A stretch of DNA of 64,000 nt from an uncultured Candidatus Woesearchaeota archaeon (GTDB lineage Archaea; Nanobdellota; Nanobdellia; UBA10117), in contig CAIPHS010000004.1 in assembly GCA_903864915.1 (NCBI GenBank), positions 3,705 to 67,704 of the forward strand, given 5' to 3'. The position numbers were made by a program, and so were the translations under genes. The first letter of the stretch is position 1, and the number at the start of each line of letters is the position of its first letter. Below, in pieces: positions 16,159 through 24,621 of the stretch. Below the pieces are notes generated by a model. That model made no database searches and was not told where the DNA came from. It saw only the letters and a list, made by a program, of their open reading frames with translations.

Positions 16159-18513
16159 ATGGCAATCATTAATTCTAGGCAGAAAAGGGAAGTCAAGCTG
16201 AAAGTTGCTGAAGCACAGCAAGATGATATCAACAAAGGCATCGTTAGAATTGATTCTCAAATAATGAGGGACATTGGCATACAGCAAGGTTCAATTGTTG
16301 AAATTGAAGCCACCAAAAAGACCGTTGCAATAGCGGGCAGGGCTTTCCCAGCAGACATAGGGTCTGCAATAATCCGAATAGATCCTTTAACGAGGAAAAA
16401 TTCCGGCGCTTCTATCGGCGAATATATTGCAGTAAGGTCCATTGAAATAAAGCCCGCGGAAAAAGTAACAATTGCACCTGCCCAGAAAAATACATTCGTC
16501 CAGGCGCATCCAGATATTTTCAAGCGCGCATTAACTGGAAGAGCTGTGGTCAAAGGCGATATGATATCTTTGGGCGGAACAAGGCGAAGAAGAATAACTA
16601 TGACTGGAAGTCCATTTTTCGATGAGGTTTTTAAGATGGTGGCTGACATGGATGATTTCAATGTTGGTTTTGGTTTTGGCGGCGACATAAAATATCTAGT
16701 TGTGAGCACCAGTCCTAAGGAACCAGTAATAATTACTGATGATACTGAAGTCGAAGTCCTGCCAGAAGCTGTGGAGCTGAAAGAAGAGAAAGTCGTCGAT
16801 ATAGCGTATGAAGACATAGGTGGATTGCAGGAAGAGCTCAAAAAAGTCAGGGAAATGATAGAGCTTCCGTTGAAACATCCCGAGCTTTTTGAAACGCTGG
16901 GTGTGCAGCCTCCAAAAGGTGTTCTACTTTATGGTCCTCCAGGTACGGGCAAGACTTTGATTGCAAGGGCAGTCGCAAACGAAACGAAGGCCTATTTCAT
17001 TTCTGTAGCTGGACCTGAAATAATGAATAAGTTTGTAGGTGAGGCAGAAAAAAGGTTAAGAGATATTTTTGCAGAAGCGGAAAAAAATGCGAAAAATGGT
17101 TCTATAATTTTCATAGATGAAATTGATGCGATAGCTCCGAAGAGAGAAGAATCCTATGGCGAAGTCGAACGAAGAGTTGTGGCCCAGTTGCTGGCTTTGA
17201 TGGATGGCTTGAAAACGAGAGGGCGCGTTATAGTTATAGCTGCAACAAACAGGCCCGACGCTTTGGACCCTGCATTAAGACGTGGCGGCCGTTTCGACAG
17301 AGAAATTGAAATTGGCGTGCCGAACAAGGAAGGACGCCTGGAAATTCTAAGAATCCACACAAGAAACATGCCGATTAGCGATGACAAAAATACAAAATTA
17401 TTAAATGAAAAAGAAAAAGAAGCATTGTTAGATGATCTAGCAACGATAACTCATGGTTTCGTAGGTGCAGATTTAGAAGGCCTTTGCAAAGAAGCAGCAA
17501 TGGTTGTTTTACGAAGGGTTCGAGAGCAGTTCCAGGACAAGCTCGCCAAGCTCGAAGAGAAAGAAAGGATACCGATTGAAATATTGGAGAAATTACAAGT
17601 ATCCAAAACTGATTTCAAAGATGCGTTGAAGATGGTCAGGCCTTCCGCAATGCGTGAAGTTTTGATAGAAACGCCAAAAGTCAAGTGGGCGGACATAGGC
17701 GGTCTTGAAATTGTGAAGCAGGAGACAAAAGAAGCCGTAGAGTGGCCGCTAAAATCTCCAGAAGTTTTCAAGCGAATGGGAATCAGGCCGCCAAAAGGCA
17801 TTTTGTTCTACGGCCCTCCAGGCTGCGGTAAGACGCTTGTTGCAAAAGCAGTTGCAGCAGAGTGCCAGGCAAACTTTATTTGCATTAAGGGACCAGAGGT
17901 AATCTCCAAGTGGGTTGGAGAATCAGAAAAAGCGATACGAGATGTCTTCAAAAAAGCCAGACAAGTTGCACCATGTATAGTATTCTTTGATGAGATAGAT
18001 TCGATAGCATCAAAAAGAGGCGGTTCGGCAGACAATAAGGTAACGGAAAGAGTTGTAGACCAATTGCTGACTGAGATGGATGGTCTTGAAGAGATGTCTG
18101 ATGTTCTTATTTTAGCTGCAACAAACAGGCCCGAACTGCTTGACGCAGCGTTACTAAGACCCGGAAGATTTGACAGGTTCCTGCTGATACCTCCACCTGA
18201 TGAAAAAACAAGACTTGAAATTCTAAAAATCCACACAAGGAACATGCCAATAGACAAAACCCTAAACTTGGCAGAACTAGCCAAAAAAACCGAAGGTTAT
18301 TCTGGTGCAGACATAGAGGCTATTTGCAGAGAATCGGCAATGCTGGCTTTAAGAGATGACATGAAGGCCAAAATTGTCAATAAAGAATATTTCGATAAGG
18401 CGCTCGAGAAAACCAGACCATCTTTAACTAAGAGGGATATTGAGAAGTATGTAAGCAACATGGATGCTGCGAAAAGAGGGGAAACAGCATACGTGCCAGC
18501 CTATATGGGCTAA
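16159..18513 (+). CDS. cdc48: CDC48/VAT AAA+ ATPase
   Basis: N domain and two AAA modules (GPPGTGKT/FIDEID; GPPGCGKT/FFDEID), second-region-of-homology motifs. Confidence 0.96.
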   Translation: MAIINSRQKREVKLKVAEAQQDDINKGIVRIDSQIMRDIGIQQGSIVEIEATKKTVAIAGRAFPADIGSAIIRIDPLTRKNSGASIGEYIAVRSIEIKPAEKVTIAPAQKNTFVQAHPDIFKRALTGRAVVKGDMISLGGTRRRRITMTGSPFFDEVFKMVADMDDFNVGFGFGGDIKYLVVSTSPKEPVIITDDTEVEVLPEAVELKEEKVVDIAYEDIGGLQEELKKVREMIELPLKHPELFETLGVQPPKGVLLYGPPGTGKTLIARAVANETKAYFISVAGPEIMNKFVGEAEKRLRDIFAEAEKNAKNGSIIFIDEIDAIAPKREESYGEVERRVVAQLLALMDGLKTRGRVIVIAATNRPDALDPALRRGGRFDREIEIGVPNKEGRLEILRIHTRNMPISDDKNTKLLNEKEKEALLDDLATITHGFVGADLEGLCKEAAMVVLRRVREQFQDKLAKLEEKERIPIEILEKLQVSKTDFKDALKMVRPSAMREVLIETPKVKWADIGGLEIVKQETKEAVEWPLKSPEVFKRMGIRPPKGILFYGPPGCGKTLVAKAVAAECQANFICIKGPEVISKWVGESEKAIRDVFKKARQVAPCIVFFDEIDSIASKRGGSADNKVTERVVDQLLTEMDGLEEMSDVLILAATNRPELLDAALLRPGRFDRFLLIPPPDEKTRLEILKIHTRNMPIDKTLNLAELAKKTEGYSGADIEAICRESAMLALRDDMKAKIVNKEYFDKALEKTRPSLTKRDIEKYVSNMDAAKRGETAYVPAYMG

Positions 18514-18556: not shown

Positions 18557-18685
18557 ATGGACACAAAATTCGACGAGGATTCTGAAGAGGATACGTCTGA
18601 AGAGGACGAGGAAGACTCAGGCGAAGAAGAGGGTGAAGAGGAAAGCTCTGAAGAAGAGGAAGTCGTAGAAGAAGAGGACTTCTGA
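18557..18685 (+). CDS. 42-aa hyper-acidic mini-protein (not in ORF track)
   Basis: ATG 18557 with GGAGG SD; MDTKFDEDSEEDTSEEDEEDSGEEEGEEESSEEEEVVEEEDF, 27/42 D or E; own TTTAAATA box upstream. Confidence 0.7.
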   Translation: MDTKFDEDSEEDTSEEDEEDSGEEEGEEESSEEEEVVEEEDF

Positions 18686-18707: not shown

Positions 18708-19601
18708 TTAATCCTTTTGCGCGGTTAATATTTTTACAGTCTTAGCGACCAAAATCGTGTGTTCAGTCTGTGCTATTTTTGCTCCCGAAACTTCTTTCAG
18801 GACATGGTAAGGGTGTAAGATGTTTCTTGAAACGGCTTCTTTCAAGAATAGGCTGACTTTCATTAGCCCAAACTTTTCCACTAGCCAGCGCTTTGCAAAT
18901 GGCAACGTGCTATATTCTCTTCTTATGAAATCTAAAATCTCCTTGTCTCGCATGGGTGCAGCATTCCTCAGCATGTAAATTTCACATTGCTCACCCTCTG
19001 TTACAAACCCCTTTCCGCTAGTTATGAACGGCTCTATGGCTATCAATGTGTCTTCTTCTAATTCTGTGGAATCATTGTTGTCAAAGTTAGGTATGCTGGG
19101 CTCTGTGTGCAAATCATAGCGCTCTACGCCATGCCCGCTCAAGTTCTTTATTACTTGCAGGTTTGATTGTTTTGCAGCAGCCTCGATTTTTCTACCAATA
19201 TCTGAAACTTTTACACCCGGCTTCACAGCAGAAATTGCAGCATCCAATGCGGCACGTGACGCCATGATTAGTTTTTCATTTTCTTCATTCTTTCCGACAG
19301 ATGCCGAGAATGCCGTGTCCGCGGGATAGCCATCAATGTGAACGCCAAAATCAATCTTCACCAAATCACCCTTTTTTAGCACAGCTGTATCGTTATATTT
19401 TGGGGAATAATGTGCTGCTATTTCGTTGATTGAGATGTTAACAGGAAAAGCTGGCTTAGCTCCAAGTTCACTTATTTTCTTCTCAATAGATTTTGCTATT
19501 TCAAGCAAAGAAGCATTTTCTTTTACCAAACCTTCAGCATATTGCCTTACTTTGGCGGCAATCTTGCCAACCTTTTCGTACTTTTCAAGTTCAGTTTCCA
19601 T
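18708..19601 (-). CDS. map: Methionine aminopeptidase type II
   Basis: AAHYSP, KIDFGVHIDGYPAD, GHG...H, IEPF, EHT metal ligands. Confidence 0.95.
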   Translation of the reverse strand: METELEKYEKVGKIAAKVRQYAEGLVKENASLLEIAKSIEKKISELGAKPAFPVNISINEIAAHYSPKYNDTAVLKKGDLVKIDFGVHIDGYPADTAFSASVGKNEENEKLIMASRAALDAAISAVKPGVKVSDIGRKIEAAAKQSNLQVIKNLSGHGVERYDLHTEPSIPNFDNNDSTELEEDTLIAIEPFITSGKGFVTEGEQCEIYMLRNAAPMRDKEILDFIRREYSTLPFAKRWLVEKFGLMKVSLFLKEAVSRNILHPYHVLKEVSGAKIAQTEHTILVAKTVKILTAQKD

Positions 19602-21957
19602 ATCCTTCAAGAGTTGTTTGCCCAGCTTTTAACTTTTCTAGGCTATAGCCAAATAGCTCGAATATTTTATAAGTTGCTCGCAAAAGCTGCTGGTTTACGT
19701 AATATTCTGGATCATAATCTTCAATTGAGGCGTCTTCAGCCAGCTTCACGCGCGAAGAGACCTTGTCGCCCCCAGCCACAACAATATAACGAACTGCGAA
19801 GCCTCTGCCAACTGCTTGACCTTTGTCCCGCGCAATTTTAGCAGCAACCACATGCGGGCCTTGTGCCTGATAGGTTTCCAAAGGTCTCGTCAGCTTTACG
19901 TTTATCACAAGGTCTTCGATTTTCACGTCCCTTTTTTCGATTTTACTTATCAAAGAATGTAAATGCTTCTCAGCCTTTTCTATGTCATTTTCTTCAAGCA
20001 AGATTTGCAAAATCTCCGTCTGGCCTTTCTTGGCAAGGTTTGACCAGTCGCCCCTTATGGCTTCCAAACCTCTTAGAATCAGGCTGCCACCTTCAGTCAA
20101 CAAAGCGTAACGCTTTTTCGCTCCACCGGAACCAGTTTTCCGCTCCAAAAACAATCCAGATTTATATTTTGCCCTGAACTCCAGCTCCATTGGTGGTGGA
20201 AGAATCGAGTTTATTATTGCCAGGAATTTCTCAGCATCAGCACCTTGCGTTTCTGCAAAAAGACTATCTGTATCACCATAAAGGACTTTGAAACCGAATT
20301 TTTCAGCTTCCCTTATCACCAAACCTATATACTTCCTGCCAAGTTCGGTTACGCCACTGGCGCATTCATAACTGTAAAATCGCGAGCCAGGGTAGCCCAT
20401 ATAACCATAGAAAGCTGCAGCAATGTATTTCAGAGCGTGCTGTCTTGCCATGAGTTCTGCAAAGGAAGCATCATTTGACGGGGTTTGCTTCAGAATCTCA
20501 TTTATTCTTTTTCTCCTCTCAACAAGGTCTTTGACAAGTGCGGGCATTAAGCCTGGCTTTTTGGAGCAAAACCATACTTTGGAATTTTCAGCCCTGTAGC
20601 CGCCTCGGAATTGGCAACACAGGCAGTTGATGGTTTCAGGGCTGATGTTGTGTGATGCGATTATGCTGGGGTACAGGCTTCTGAAATCGAAGCAGCATAT
20701 GTCATTGTAAAGGCCCGGTCTGGGCTCGACGACCAAACCACCAACATAACTTTTCTTTCTCCTAGCATAAATTTCTGCAGGAGAAGGTTTTTGCGGTATT
20801 AGAATTGTTGCATTCTTAATTATGAACCATTCAACTAATGCGCCGTACGTTATGTAATTTATATCCCTTAGCGCAAGGCCAGTCAGCTTGCTTAGCTCCA
20901 ACTGCACTGGCAATATTTTGTTTGCGACTTCAAAAGTGAGCTGCGCGTCAGTGAGATTATAATCGGACAGAAATTTCAGCTCTTCATCCAAGCCGACAGA
21001 CCATATTTCATTTATTTTTGCTGCACCAAGCTTTCCTAACTTGCCTTTCCCCAGCAATTTCTTAGCAACAAGGTCTAGTCCGTAGTTGTTTGTGTCCAAG
21101 TCAAGTATCCTCCTTGCGAAATAAGAGATGTCTATGCTCGGCAAGCCCGTAATTTTGGCGGGCTTTCTAGCATCTATTTCTATTTCAGAGTCATCCCACC
21201 CGGAATTCAACTTTATGTTATATTTTTTTGCCCTGGTAGCGAGGTAGGGCAAGTCGAAATTATCAGAACCATAGCCAACCAGCAATTCAGGCCTATTGTC
21301 TTTGATAGTCTGCACAAATTCTTCTATAAGCGCAGCTTCACTGTCTACAAACTTGACATTTTCAGGATTTGCGGAAGGAAAACGCTTCCAAGTTATTACG
21401 CGCTTTGTGTTTTCAGAATAGAAAGCAATCATTATTATAGGATCTTTTTTGGCATCAGGGTATGCCTGTTCGCTGGCTGTTTCTATATCAAACGCAAGAA
21501 TGCTTGGTTGGTATGCCACGTTAGCTGATTCTATGTGTTCTGCATTTACTGCAACATCTGCCCGGTATTTCATCTGAGAGTAGACTTCGCCCCTGACTTT
21601 GCAGAGTGTCGATGGGTTTACTTTCTTGTCAACCCAGTAACGCTTTTTCAGCGGTATGTCGCTGTTGTATAGTTTGCTAGAAATTTTCTTTGCAGTTCTC
21701 GCAACTTCTACGAAATCTTTCGGTTTTACGAAAACCCGAGTTAGCTCACCTTCGTATTGCGTATGTGCTATTTGCAGATTATTTTCCCTACAAGCATCCC
21801 TTAGTTTGAGCAAATTTTCGCGTGGCAAAAGGAAGTAAGGCACGTATAATCTGTCTAAAATTAAGATGCGTTTCTTGTCTTGTGTAATACCAAATATAAT
21901 CGCGCCCTCTTCAGCGAAGGCGATGTCTTGGGGGTAAAAACTTACTTCAATGGACAT
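19591..21957 (-). CDS. polB: Family B DNA polymerase
   Basis: Exonuclease FDIET and NFDLPYL; polymerase DFRSLYPSII, KxxxxxxYG, YGDTDS. Confidence 0.96.
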   Translation of the reverse strand: MSIEVSFYPQDIAFAEEGAIIFGITQDKKRILILDRLYVPYFLLPRENLLKLRDACRENNLQIAHTQYEGELTRVFVKPKDFVEVARTAKKISSKLYNSDIPLKKRYWVDKKVNPSTLCKVRGEVYSQMKYRADVAVNAEHIESANVAYQPSILAFDIETASEQAYPDAKKDPIIMIAFYSENTKRVITWKRFPSANPENVKFVDSEAALIEEFVQTIKDNRPELLVGYGSDNFDLPYLATRAKKYNIKLNSGWDDSEIEIDARKPAKITGLPSIDISYFARRILDLDTNNYGLDLVAKKLLGKGKLGKLGAAKINEIWSVGLDEELKFLSDYNLTDAQLTFEVANKILPVQLELSKLTGLALRDINYITYGALVEWFIIKNATILIPQKPSPAEIYARRKKSYVGGLVVEPRPGLYNDICCFDFRSLYPSIIASHNISPETINCLCCQFRGGYRAENSKVWFCSKKPGLMPALVKDLVERRKRINEILKQTPSNDASFAELMARQHALKYIAAAFYGYMGYPGSRFYSYECASGVTELGRKYIGLVIREAEKFGFKVLYGDTDSLFAETQGADAEKFLAIINSILPPPMELEFRAKYKSGLFLERKTGSGGAKKRYALLTEGGSLILRGLEAIRGDWSNLAKKGQTEILQILLEENDIEKAEKHLHSLISKIEKRDVKIEDLVINVKLTRPLETYQAQGPHVVAAKIARDKGQAVGRGFAVRYIVVAGGDKVSSRVKLAEDASIEDYDPEYYVNQQLLRATYKIFELFGYSLEKLKAGQTTLEGYGN

Positions 21958-22376
21958 TATGGTTGTGGATTTTCTTCCTGTTTTCTACCTCTAAGGACAG
22001 TGAAGAATCTGCTTAACTCCCTAATTATATGGTCAGAATCCTCGCGTAGTTTTTGCACAGTCAGTAAGAGCCTTTGTTCGTCCTTGACAATATCTTCAAT
22101 CATGTCGTAGGCCTTTGTTGCGCGCTGGAAATCTGCAAGTGAAACAGATGCGTATTGTGTGGCGCCCATCTCTTTAGCAACTTTTTTGGTCAGGTCGCCG
22201 AGCCACATATTCATAGCTTCCTTAACTTCAGAACGGATGATTTTATTCTTGATTTCATCTCTCATTAATCTTACAACGCGGGCTCTTGGGAAGGGAGAAG
22301 TTTCATCTTCTTCTACAGCATTTTCAGTTGGAGCTTCGTCTGGAGCGACATCAGCATCGTTTTGTTCATCTGCCAT
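21957..22376 (-). CDS. Histone-fold protein with acidic N-terminal tail and C-terminal coiled coil
   Basis: FPRARVVRLMR...EVKEAMN...VSLADF resembles the NF-YB/HMf histone fold; stop overlaps the polB start (TAATG). Confidence 0.7.
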   Translation of the reverse strand: MADEQNDADVAPDEAPTENAVEEDETSPFPRARVVRLMRDEIKNKIIRSEVKEAMNMWLGDLTKKVAKEMGATQYASVSLADFQRATKAYDMIEDIVKDEQRLLLTVQKLREDSDHIIRELSRFFTVLRGRKQEENPQP

Positions 22377-22469
22377 GATATAGGACACCAAAATAACCTT
22401 TTTAGGCTTTGCTATTAGGCGAAGCAGGTCGGTTTTTAGCCGTTTGCCGCCATCTTAACCTTTATAAAT

Positions 22470-22748
22470 ATGGTCTGTTTTATGGCCTTATGGAACGTGA
22501 GATTCGGTGCTGTAACAACCAGTAATTCCACAAGTAGCCCGGACTTCGAAATGCTTAGATTTTTGCCTGCAGACCAGAAAACTTTACAAATAAAGATGGG
22601 CTTTTCAAATAGAACTGTGCGGTACAAGCTTGCAAAATTGAAGTCTGTAGGTTTGTTGCGGGAAGTAACAGATTTAAAAGATGCGAGGCGTAAATTGTGC
22701 ATACGTGGGGATGGCAGATCCGCTATGCGACCGACTGCAGATCGGTAG
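22470..22748 (+). CDS. Small winged helix-turn-helix regulator
   Basis: SNRTVRYKLAKLKSVGLLREVTDLKDARRKL is a typical archaeal wHTH C-terminus; start uncertain. Confidence 0.6.
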   Translation: MVCFMALWNVRFGAVTTSNSTSSPDFEMLRFLPADQKTLQIKMGFSNRTVRYKLAKLKSVGLLREVTDLKDARRKLCIRGDGRSAMRPTADR

Positions 22749-22754
22749 AGCTGG

Positions 22755-23267
22755 GTGCAACTCCCAGTCCCCACTCTAAAAGAAATGGTAATCGAAAAAC
22801 AAATTGCTAAATATTTGTTCAAAACGCTCAAAGATAGCTGGGCAAATGAAAATGTCAAGATGACAAATCCATTTCCAGAGCTTAAACTAATTAATTCAAA
22901 ATCTGGCGATTGGCGGTATGTTGATCAATACGTAGGTGGAGAACCGTATCAGGGATTTGAAGTTATTTGGTTCAAAAATAAACCTATTTGGTCGATGACC
23001 TATAGAGGACTGTACCACGGTTCCGAGCCATATAAAAAATTCATAACATTTCTCAAAGCAGCTTTAAGCGCTGCACCAAAAGAAATGCCAGTGCGTGGGC
23101 CAAAGAAATTTGCACAAAAACAATTTGCAAACTGGTCATACGAAAATAGCTGGCGCGGTAAAATGAATGAATTCAAAGGAAGAGAAGAAGTCTTCTTTAA
23201 GAAAAAAATAGTATTTTGGACAGATTATCAAGGGGGCACAGTAAACCATGAGTTTGAAAATCTATAA
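22755..23267 (+). CDS. DUF5680-like protein
   Basis: YVDQYVGGEPYQGFEVIW...PIWSMTYRG and Y.NSW.G....F.G.E.V pattern. Confidence 0.7.
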   Translation: MQLPVPTLKEMVIEKQIAKYLFKTLKDSWANENVKMTNPFPELKLINSKSGDWRYVDQYVGGEPYQGFEVIWFKNKPIWSMTYRGLYHGSEPYKKFITFLKAALSAAPKEMPVRGPKKFAQKQFANWSYENSWRGKMNEFKGREEVFFKKKIVFWTDYQGGTVNHEFENL

Positions 23268-24621
23268 TACGTTGGGAAGGAAAAAGCAAGTCTTCAAGCC
23301 AATCAAAGATAAGCAGGTCGGCATGTATACGTGCGGGCCAACAGTTTATGATTACGATCATTTAGGTCATGCTTGGAATTACGTTGCCAGCGATATTCTT
23401 CGAAGAGTCTTGGAGTACAATGGCTATAAAGTTAAGCATGTCATGAATATCACAGACGTTGGTCACTTGACTTCGGATGCAGATACTGGCGAAGAGAAGA
23501 TGGAGCTTGCCGCAAGGCGCGAGCATAAGTCCGCGTGGAAGATTGCCGAATTCTATACAAAGATTTTCATGGAGAATAGGGAAAAATTAAACATACTGAA
23601 GCCGACCGTAGTTTGCAGAGCAACAGACCACATAAAGGAAATGATTGCGCTGATTAAAAAACTCGAGGAAAAAGGTTACACTTACGTAATATCTGATGGA
23701 GTTTATTTTAACATATCTAAATTTCCAAAATACGGACAGTTGTCCGGAAATAAATCTGGCGAACTCAAAGCAGGCGCGAGAGTTGAAGTAAACCCTGAAA
23801 AGAAAAGCCCATATGACTTTGCGCTATGGAAGTTCTCTCCCAAAGACAAAAAGCGCGATATGGAGTGGGATTCGCCATGGGGTAAGGGTTTCCCTGGCTG
23901 GCACATAGAATGTTCAGCTATGTCTATGAAATATCTAGGTGAGCATTTTGATATTCACACTGGCGGAGAAGACAATATTTTCCCACACCACGAATCAGAA
24001 ATAGCACAATCAGAAGCATCAACGGGCAAGAAATTTGTGAATTATTGGTTACATACGAGATTTTTGATGATTGAAAGCCAAAAAATGAGTAAGTCGCTTA
24101 AGAATTATTATCGCATCCAAGATTTGGAAGAAAAAGGCTTCAAGCCCCTCGCTTTGCGTTATTTGTTCTTAACAGCAAAATTCAGATCACCATTTAATTT
24201 TACATTTGAAGGCTTGACTGCAGCATCTACAACCTTAGAACGATTAAAAAATATCGCAGAGATGTTGGAAGATGATGGTAAGACAAACAAAAAGTACTTG
24301 GCACAATTTGAAAAGGCGGTAAATGACGATTTGAATACGCCAGAAGCCTTGGCTGTGCTGTGGAATTTTATCAGGGACCCTAAAGCAACCGGAAAATTGA
24401 ACACACTAGCAAAGATGGATGAAGTTCTTGGCCTCGATTTGCTGAAAAAAGAAAAGTCTGAGATTTCTGAGCATGTGAAAATTCTCATAGAGCAACGGGA
24501 AGAAGCGAGAAAGAAGAAGGATTTCAAGACTGCGGACAGGATAAGAAATGAACTGAAAGAGAAAGGAATTATTCTTGAAGACCAGCCAGATGGCGGCACA
24601 AGATGGAAAGTTATTAAATAG
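23248..24621 (+). CDS. cysS: Cysteinyl-tRNA synthetase
   Basis: YTCGPTVY, HLGH, GWHIECSAM, KMSKS. Confidence 0.97.
   Translation: MSLKIYNTLGRKKQVFKPIKDKQVGMYTCGPTVYDYDHLGHAWNYVASDILRRVLEYNGYKVKHVMNITDVGHLTSDADTGEEKMELAARREHKSAWKIAEFYTKIFMENREKLNILKPTVVCRATDHIKEMIALIKKLEEKGYTYVISDGVYFNISKFPKYGQLSGNKSGELKAGARVEVNPEKKSPYDFALWKFSPKDKKRDMEWDSPWGKGFPGWHIECSAMSMKYLGEHFDIHTGGEDNIFPHHESEIAQSEASTGKKFVNYWLHTRFLMIESQKMSKSLKNYYRIQDLEEKGFKPLALRYLFLTAKFRSPFNFTFEGLTAASTTLERLKNIAEMLEDDGKTNKKYLAQFEKAVNDDLNTPEALAVLWNFIRDPKATGKLNTLAKMDEVLGLDLLKKEKSEISEHVKILIEQREEARKKKDFKTADRIRNELKEKGIILEDQPDGGTRWKVIK

Follow-up and report, generated by a model that had tools for sequence, protein, structure and literature searches.

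What kind of protein is encoded by a histone-fold gene whose stop codon runs into the start of a DNA polymerase gene? The question is raised by P0001, encoded in a stretch of 64,000 nucleotides (the window, from contig CAIPHS010000004.1 of assembly GCA_903864915.1) that belongs to an uncultured Candidatus Woesearchaeota archaeon. The sequence-only reading of this DNA noted that the open reading frame (ORF) for P0001 overlaps the start of polB, the gene for a family-B DNA polymerase (PolB), and proposed either an archaeal PolB accessory subunit resembling Dpb3/Dpb4 of eukaryotic Pol epsilon or a non-nucleosomal histone-fold factor. The second proposal agrees with what was found, since a histone fold, a long C-terminal helix, an acidic tail, and a predicted dimer of dimers joined by helices together describe the coiled-coil (CC) class of histones (PMC11390915). 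With a probability of about 72%, P0001 is a CC histone of the HMfC type from a Woesearchaeota-like DPANN archaeon, encoded at the promoter-proximal end of an inherited block with the order histone>polB>MetAP (methionine aminopeptidase). Judged from gene content, P0001 is probably not a polymerase subunit, because relatives that have lost polB keep the histone intact.

Histone fold and predicted assembly of P0001

The fold needed testing because the match of P0001 to the histone family PF00808 is partial and lies below the threshold of that family. P0001 has 107 close homologues, in which a core of about 110 residues is 50-98% identical; most members of the family are annotated as "hypothetical protein" or "histone H3/H4", and NCBIfam has no family for P0001. 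An exhaustive search of 1.84 billion representatives with the P0001-family profile returned only 123 clusters, all of them short proteins. When a core-only profile of 70 diverse members (A3) was compared with solved chains, the region from alpha1 to alpha3 matched H2B (E 4.3e-7), NF-YB2 (E 8.9e-5), and archaeal histone A (E 2e-3). The same profile was aligned by hhalign to canonical histones of 68-80 amino acids (aa) from the same order with an E value of 2.4e-4 and a probability of 43%. The core-only model of P0001 has a predicted local distance difference test score (pLDDT) of 91.5, and all 50 matches listed by Foldseek for this model are histone-fold chains, with template modeling (TM) scores by query of 0.50-0.78 and probabilities of 0.96-1.00, although E values are only about 1e-2. 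The matches listed include NF-YB/C, H2B, Dpb4, and the Asgard histone HHoB, the last with TM scores of 0.70/0.76 and a root-mean-square deviation of 2.0 Å over 66 columns. By profile and by model, P0001 is a real histone fold. With the whole protein, phmmer of P0001 alone against the PDB gave no meaningful match, and the histone matches of the full-length family profile among solved chains were no more than weak. When the full-length family was aligned to canonical histones by hhalign, the result was not significant (probability 0.3%).

AlphaFold2 places helices at residues 33-41, 49-71, and 80-128. A long C-terminal helix had been proposed from the sequence, and the full-length model agrees, with a single unbroken helix from 80 to 128 and pLDDT of 89-95 over residues 91-120; this helix also matches coiled-coil chains at Z 5.5-5.7, which is informative only of its length. 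The acidic N-terminal tail quoted in the sequence-only reading corresponds to residues 2-25 and is likewise upheld by composition: residues 1-27 contain eleven Asp or Glu and no Lys or Arg. Acidic N-terminal tails are found in 28/28 aligned relatives, where their length ranges from 15 to 81 aa.

Complex prediction was performed on four copies of residues 26-139 with their own alignment, three controls, and three runs. The homotetramer reached an interface score (ipSAE) of 0.73, while the best control reached 0.00; at least 93% of contacts agreed among the three runs, and partner pLDDT was at least 75. In a calibration with two copies, this mark was attained by 20 of 30 proteins whose solved structures are pairs of one chain, compared with 1 of 23 single-chain structures, but these counts are only a rough guide here, as an own alignment and four copies were used. 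The predicted contacts include those of a histone handshake, in which alpha2 crosses its partner at 59:59 and 62:62 and residues 78-83 of L2/alpha3 meet residues 48-58 of the partner chain. In a second predicted interface, residues 93-128 alone join the two dimers. On these models, P0001 is predicted to be a dimer of dimers assembled through its C-terminal helices.

A mechanism can be proposed on this basis. Two P0001 chains would form a histone-fold handshake dimer, and two dimers would join back to back, with their long C-terminal helices forming a four-helix coiled coil. A basic face of alpha1 and loop 1 on each dimer (R33, R36, R48, and K52) would bind DNA, so that the tetramer could bridge two DNA duplexes, and the acidic N-terminal tail would probably modulate this binding. 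In the family alignment K52 never varies, and conservation is at least 90% at R33 and R48. The gene for such a protein would lead an operon-like block, histone>polB>MetAP, inherited within one order.

Relationship to coiled-coil and other histones

The CC histones were defined by Schwab et al. (2024, Nat Commun 15:7950; PMC11390915), with HMfC (Mfer_0945, E3GZL0) from Methanothermus fervidus as the type member. In these proteins the histone fold is N-terminal and is followed by a long C-terminal helix, and two opposed dimers are predicted to form a tetramer; many members, but not all, have a highly acidic disordered tail, and the class occurs in Methanobacteriota, Nanoarchaeota, and other DPANN phyla (PMC11390915). 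HMfC, the member that has been tested, bridges DNA in vitro (PMC11390915). In P0001 the N-terminal fold, the long helix, the predicted tetramer of opposed dimers, and the acidic disordered tail are all present, and its host is a DPANN archaeon of the Nanoarchaeota type. The tail is a likeness to the family but a difference from HMfC itself, which has no tails. The basic positions in the CC sequence logo (R32/K35 and R45/K49) have the same i/i+3 and i/i+4 spacing as R33, R36, R48, and K52 of P0001, if the two numberings map onto each other as we infer. The nearest clusters in the ESM Atlas are archaeal, 126-141 aa long, and mostly from Methanobacteriota, and some carry PF00808. The cluster containing the Methanobrevibacter protein WP_295001401.1 matches the P0001-family profile with an E value of 5e-24, and BLASTP of its representative against P0001 gives an E value of 3e-14 with 31% identity.

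Other archaeal histones resemble P0001 less closely. The nucleosomal histones HMfA and HMfB (PF00808) share the alpha1-L1-alpha2-L2-alpha3 fold; however P0001 is twice as long (139 aa compared with about 65-70 aa), with an acidic tail and a coiled-coil extension added, an alpha2 about four residues shorter, a PF00808 score under the cut-off, and no RKT in loop 2. The earlier statement that P0001 is unlike minimal HMf histones was correct. MJ1647 from Methanococcales and the RdgC histones also combine a histone fold with a C-terminal tetramerization element that places two dimers back to back, and RdgC histones are the first gene of a conserved multi-gene operon (PMC11390915). These classes differ from the CC histones in having little sequence similarity to them (PMC11390915), and the operon partners of RdgC histones are an RdgC-like protein and a membrane protein rather than PolB and MetAP.

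Several points weigh against the assignment of P0001 to the CC histones or against the function proposed for it. Membership is indirect, resting on anatomy, on the Methanobrevibacter link, and on the list of phyla in the defining paper. PF00808 scores 18.7 bits on P0001, where the cut-off is 21.4, and covers alpha1-alpha2 only (profile positions 3-43). A Foldseek search of the PDB with the full-length model returned only E values above 1, mostly to histones, and a wide VIA-align search with the same model was uninformative, being dominated by the long helix at Z 5.7. P0001 is acidic overall (net -7) and the nucleosomal loop-2 RKT motif is replaced by Y-A/G-S in its family (RKT aligns to Y-A-S), therefore DNA binding is not guaranteed. 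Because the fold of histone dimers is so well known, some of the oligomer score may come from likeness to solved structures. The genomic setting also differs, as CC histones were called single-gene operons (PMC11390915) whereas P0001 heads histone>polB>MetAP with a one-base overlap. All 26 orthologous polB genes found in the order immediately follow the histone gene, and a functional tie between the two is possible.

Conservation of the gene block and the polymerase connection

The survey of the histone-polB pair that had been suggested as a check on the accessory-subunit proposal gave a divided answer: the pair is conserved in most histone-bearing genomes of the order of the window, but is unlinked in other orders. 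The sample consisted of 39 species-representative genomes of that order; the relatives carry the labels Woesearchaeota, Pacearchaeota, or Nanoarchaeia metagenome-assembled genomes. The histone is present in 32 of the 39, and polB is directly downstream in 26 of these 32, including one short N-terminal polB fragment at a contig end and one gene split across contigs. The gap between the two genes ranges from -8 to +16 nucleotides (nt) and is mostly -1 or -4. Such adjacency and overlap would be expected if the histone bound PolB and tethered it to duplex DNA as Dpb3-Dpb4 does for Pol epsilon, with coupled synthesis ensuring co-assembly, and no genome of the order was found to have the orthologous polB at another place. 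The fold is also of the H2B/NF-YB type, and yeast Pol epsilon Dpb4 (6wjv_4) is at rank 5 among the Foldseek matches listed (TM by query 0.56), although this match is weaker than those to NF-YB and to archaeal histones. Dpb3-Dpb4 (POLE4-POLE3) resembles P0001 in its H2A/H2B-NF-Y-class fold and in the association with a family-B polymerase, here by shared encoding. It differs in being a heterodimer of distinct proteins on the non-catalytic module of Pol epsilon, while a single histone-fold gene and a predicted homo-oligomer are found here, which argues against a heterodimer. A domain search of the PolB in the window (P0002) found no module beyond exonuclease and polymerase, and nothing like the module of Pol epsilon that holds Dpb3-Dpb4; a docking site of that kind would thus be lacking.

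The adjacency of histone and polB is part of a wider arrangement. The block CysRS / histone>polB>MetAP / <CDC48, in which CysRS is cysteinyl-tRNA synthetase, is conserved (29 named loci with 6-kb flanks), and the order of polB and MetAP is kept, with MetAP 3' of polB in 18 of 18 assessable relatives. MetAP, CDC48, and CysRS are linked to the histone as tightly as polB is, which counts against a special relationship with the polymerase. Six genomes of the order have the histone without polB behind it. MetAP comes straight after the histone in three of them (G484, G464, and G461), an arrangement like that expected from a clean deletion of polB. The remaining three have a glycosyltransferase-like gene, a gene for a small Cys-rich protein with MGCGQCG, or a 142-aa ORF in that place, with a one-base overlap each time. 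Neither a protein search nor PF00136 found a PolB in five of the six genomes (G484, G452, G442, G461, and G449, with histone loci L018, L020, L031, L036, and L039; 83-89% complete), and this absence is consistent within genera (PolB in 0/3 for g286 and 0/2 for g283). The sixth, G464, has a divergent PolB of 762 aa (L097, C32, 2501-4789, minus strand) with 29% identity and unrelated neighbors, which may represent a different PolB lineage or have come from a mobile element. PolD DP2 was found in every genome tested, including that of the window; among the five PolB-less genomes, four were tested (G449 was left out).

The unlinked histones have been retained with little alteration. Their scores with the family profile are 186-203 bits (188-218 bits for linked genomes), and they keep 38-43 of 44 near-invariant positions with conservative changes, even though these positions were defined on the linked set and the comparison is biased against the unlinked genomes. 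Beyond these, 16 further homologues (15 from other orders of the class and one from an unlinked genome of the order) match the profile with E values of 1e-29 to 1e-57, and no PolB, MetAP, or CDC48 was found within 3 kb of any of them. In 5/5 genomes tested from other orders, PolB is on a separate contig from the histone. On this comparison of gene order, the histone and polB are best read as parts of an inherited operon that is specific to the order and whose housekeeping genes are unrelated to one another. PolB would have been lost from the block, probably several times, with no effect on the histone, and PolB appears to be dispensable in this DPANN order. Some Euryarchaeota can dispense with PolB of the Thermococcales type but need PolD, which would fit these losses. 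A search for literature on a histone-polB operon in DPANN archaea found nothing relevant.

The overlap between the two genes is as first described, with TAATG at 21959-21955 and one base shared in the ORF coordinates, but overlap alone is uninformative because 15 of the 48 same-strand neighboring ORF pairs in the window overlap too, four of them by exactly one base. In three relatives the histone gene overlaps unrelated downstream genes by one base. The histone/polB overlap is a matter of genome compaction and nothing special by itself. At most it would set PolB translation through termination-reinitiation, and such coupled translation would be no sign of a protein complex. For the histone gene itself, ATG 22376 is a likelier start than the upstream TTG 22391, because relatives all start with M-x-(D/E)-E and a conserved BRE/TATA-like box (transcription factor B recognition element and TATA box) lies 23-34 nt upstream. 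The box, as AAGCYTAAAAA, is at an identical distance in the relatives L009, L010, and L014. The sequence AAAGC-CTAAAAA is a putative archaeal promoter, and would imply that the histone mRNA is leaderless or has a very short leader. A second conserved upstream element, GCTAAAAACCGAC (22428-22440, minus strand), is found 52-64 nt before the histone ATG and also occurs in L009, L010, and L014; it may bind a regulator or act as another TATA-like box.

Other explanations and the wider locus

The alternative that survives best, although still unlikely, is a regulatory link without binding. Co-transcription would let the supply of histone track DNA synthesis or repair, with histone made in excess and PolB kept low by reinitiation. 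The conserved promoter-like box is upstream of the histone gene only, no intergenic room is left for a separate polB promoter, and the gene order is kept across PolB sequences with about 35-66% identity, all of which is consistent with this explanation. However, the presence of the housekeeping gene MetAP in the block suggests unrelated genes brought into one operon by compaction, and where polB has been lost, a glycosyltransferase-like gene, a gene for a small Cys-rich protein, or another ORF overlaps the histone gene just as well.

It is improbable that P0001 is a scaffold or a protein resembling transcription factors of the NF-Y or NC2 style, with no global role in DNA organization. Its best sequence and structure matches are folds of the H2B/NF-YB class, the protein is acidic overall and has no RKT motif in loop 2, and its core is very strongly conserved, surface residues included. 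The defining paper also cautions that prokaryotic histone-fold proteins are not all genome organizers and reports that a CC histone is lowly expressed (PMC11390915). On the other side, the one CC member tested, HMfC, does bridge DNA (PMC11390915), the alpha1/L1 face carries the basic residues R33, R48, and K52, which vary little or not at all, and the genome, at 82.65% completeness, yielded neither a partner histone-fold gene nor a sequence-specific subunit.

More doubtful again is the idea that a CC histone was recruited in this order as a facultative partner of a PolB3-type polymerase, loading or tethering PolB on bridged or compacted DNA, with a fixed excess of histone set by translational coupling. 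Such a partnership would account for the constant pairing of the orthologous polB with the histone gene, and, if true, P0001 would be an independently arisen archaeal functional analogue of the Dpb3-Dpb4 module of Pol epsilon. A PolB accessory subunit of the Dpb3/Dpb4 kind is the least probable of the alternatives and very unlikely, given adjacency limited to one order within a block that includes MetAP, five genomes with a histone and no PolB, a single histone-fold gene, and a PolB with no extra domains.

The source genome (G000) has 651 kb in 13 contigs, and P0001 was the only PF00808-like gene found in it, with no second histone-fold gene. A canonical PF00808 histone of 68-80 aa coexists with the P0001 family in 17 of the 39 genomes of the order, but none was found in the source genome, at its level of completeness, or in its closest genera. 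The only candidate chromatin proteins seen in the source genome are P0001 and the product of one Alba gene (contig 11).

P0002 is the only PolB in the genome. By score it is a Thermococcales-like family-B polymerase, as its best solved relatives are polymerases of the Pfu/KOD/Tgo type (433 bits, compared with 135 bits for Escherichia coli Pol II), and Exo I, motif A, and motif C are present. A "B7" PolB group has been reported for Woesearchaeota and Pacearchaeota (PMC7544198); a bacterial Pol II-like origin of this kind was considered for P0002 and rejected on the same scores. Motif B of P0002 is KYIAAAFYG, which departs from the canonical KxxxNSxYG; close relatives have KYIAVAFYG or KRIAASFYG, while other members of the order have KILANSFYG. 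In Exo II the first Asn is replaced (GSDNFD). A possible explanation for these altered motifs is that PolB is non-essential here and selects nucleotides less strictly or in a different way. Elsewhere in the locus (Table 1), most genomes of the order have CysRS, in one orientation or the other, within a few kilobases upstream of the histone gene, and a hyper-acidic ORF of 42 aa (18557-18685, plus strand) is found just after cdc48, adjoining the histone-polB-MetAP block.

Table 1. Positions in the window of the histone gene, its parts, and neighboring features
Feature	Position	Strand	Details
Histone gene P0001 (probable CC type)	21957..22376	-	ATG 22376 to TAA 21959-21957; 139 aa plus stop
Acidic disordered N-terminal tail, residues 1-27	22296..22376	-	11 D/E, 0 K/R; pLDDT <50 at residues 1-20
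Histone fold, residues 28-92	22101..22295	-	alpha1 33-41, alpha2 49-71, alpha3 from 80
C-terminal helix continuing alpha3, residues 93-128; predicted tetramerization coiled coil	21993..22100	-	interdimer contacts in four-copy prediction
BRE/TATA-like element AAAGC-CTAAAAA (putative promoter)	22399..22410	-	23-34 nt 5' of histone ATG
TAATG stop/start junction of histone gene and polB	21955..21959	-	polB ATG 21957-21955; one base shared
Family-B DNA polymerase P0002, 788 aa	19591..21957	-	stop 19591-19593; PF00136 E 4.2e-58, PF03104 E 1.6e-30
Methionine aminopeptidase-type M24 peptidase, third gene of block	18708..19610	-	start ATG 19601 or TTG 19610 overlaps polB stop; PF00557 E 2.5e-37
CDC48	16159-18513		convergent to block
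tRNA-Cys	22705-22776	+	divergent from histone gene
DUF5680 gene and CysRS	23248-24621	+	divergent from histone gene

A polymerase link, if true, would be a notable parallel to Pol epsilon, but the inference from gene overlap, while attractive, was weak and is corrected here. The family of P0001 is itself already known, as P0001 would be a further member of the CC histones described in 2024. What appears to be new with respect to the searchable literature is a CC histone at the head of a conserved histone>polB>MetAP block, together with the apparently repeated loss of PolB in an order where PolD and the histone remain. The importance of the finding is modest: a conserved DPANN gene can now be placed, with the probability given above, in a recently defined histone class, and proteins of the P0001 type may be the sole histone-fold proteins in some tiny genomes, possibly including that of the source organism.

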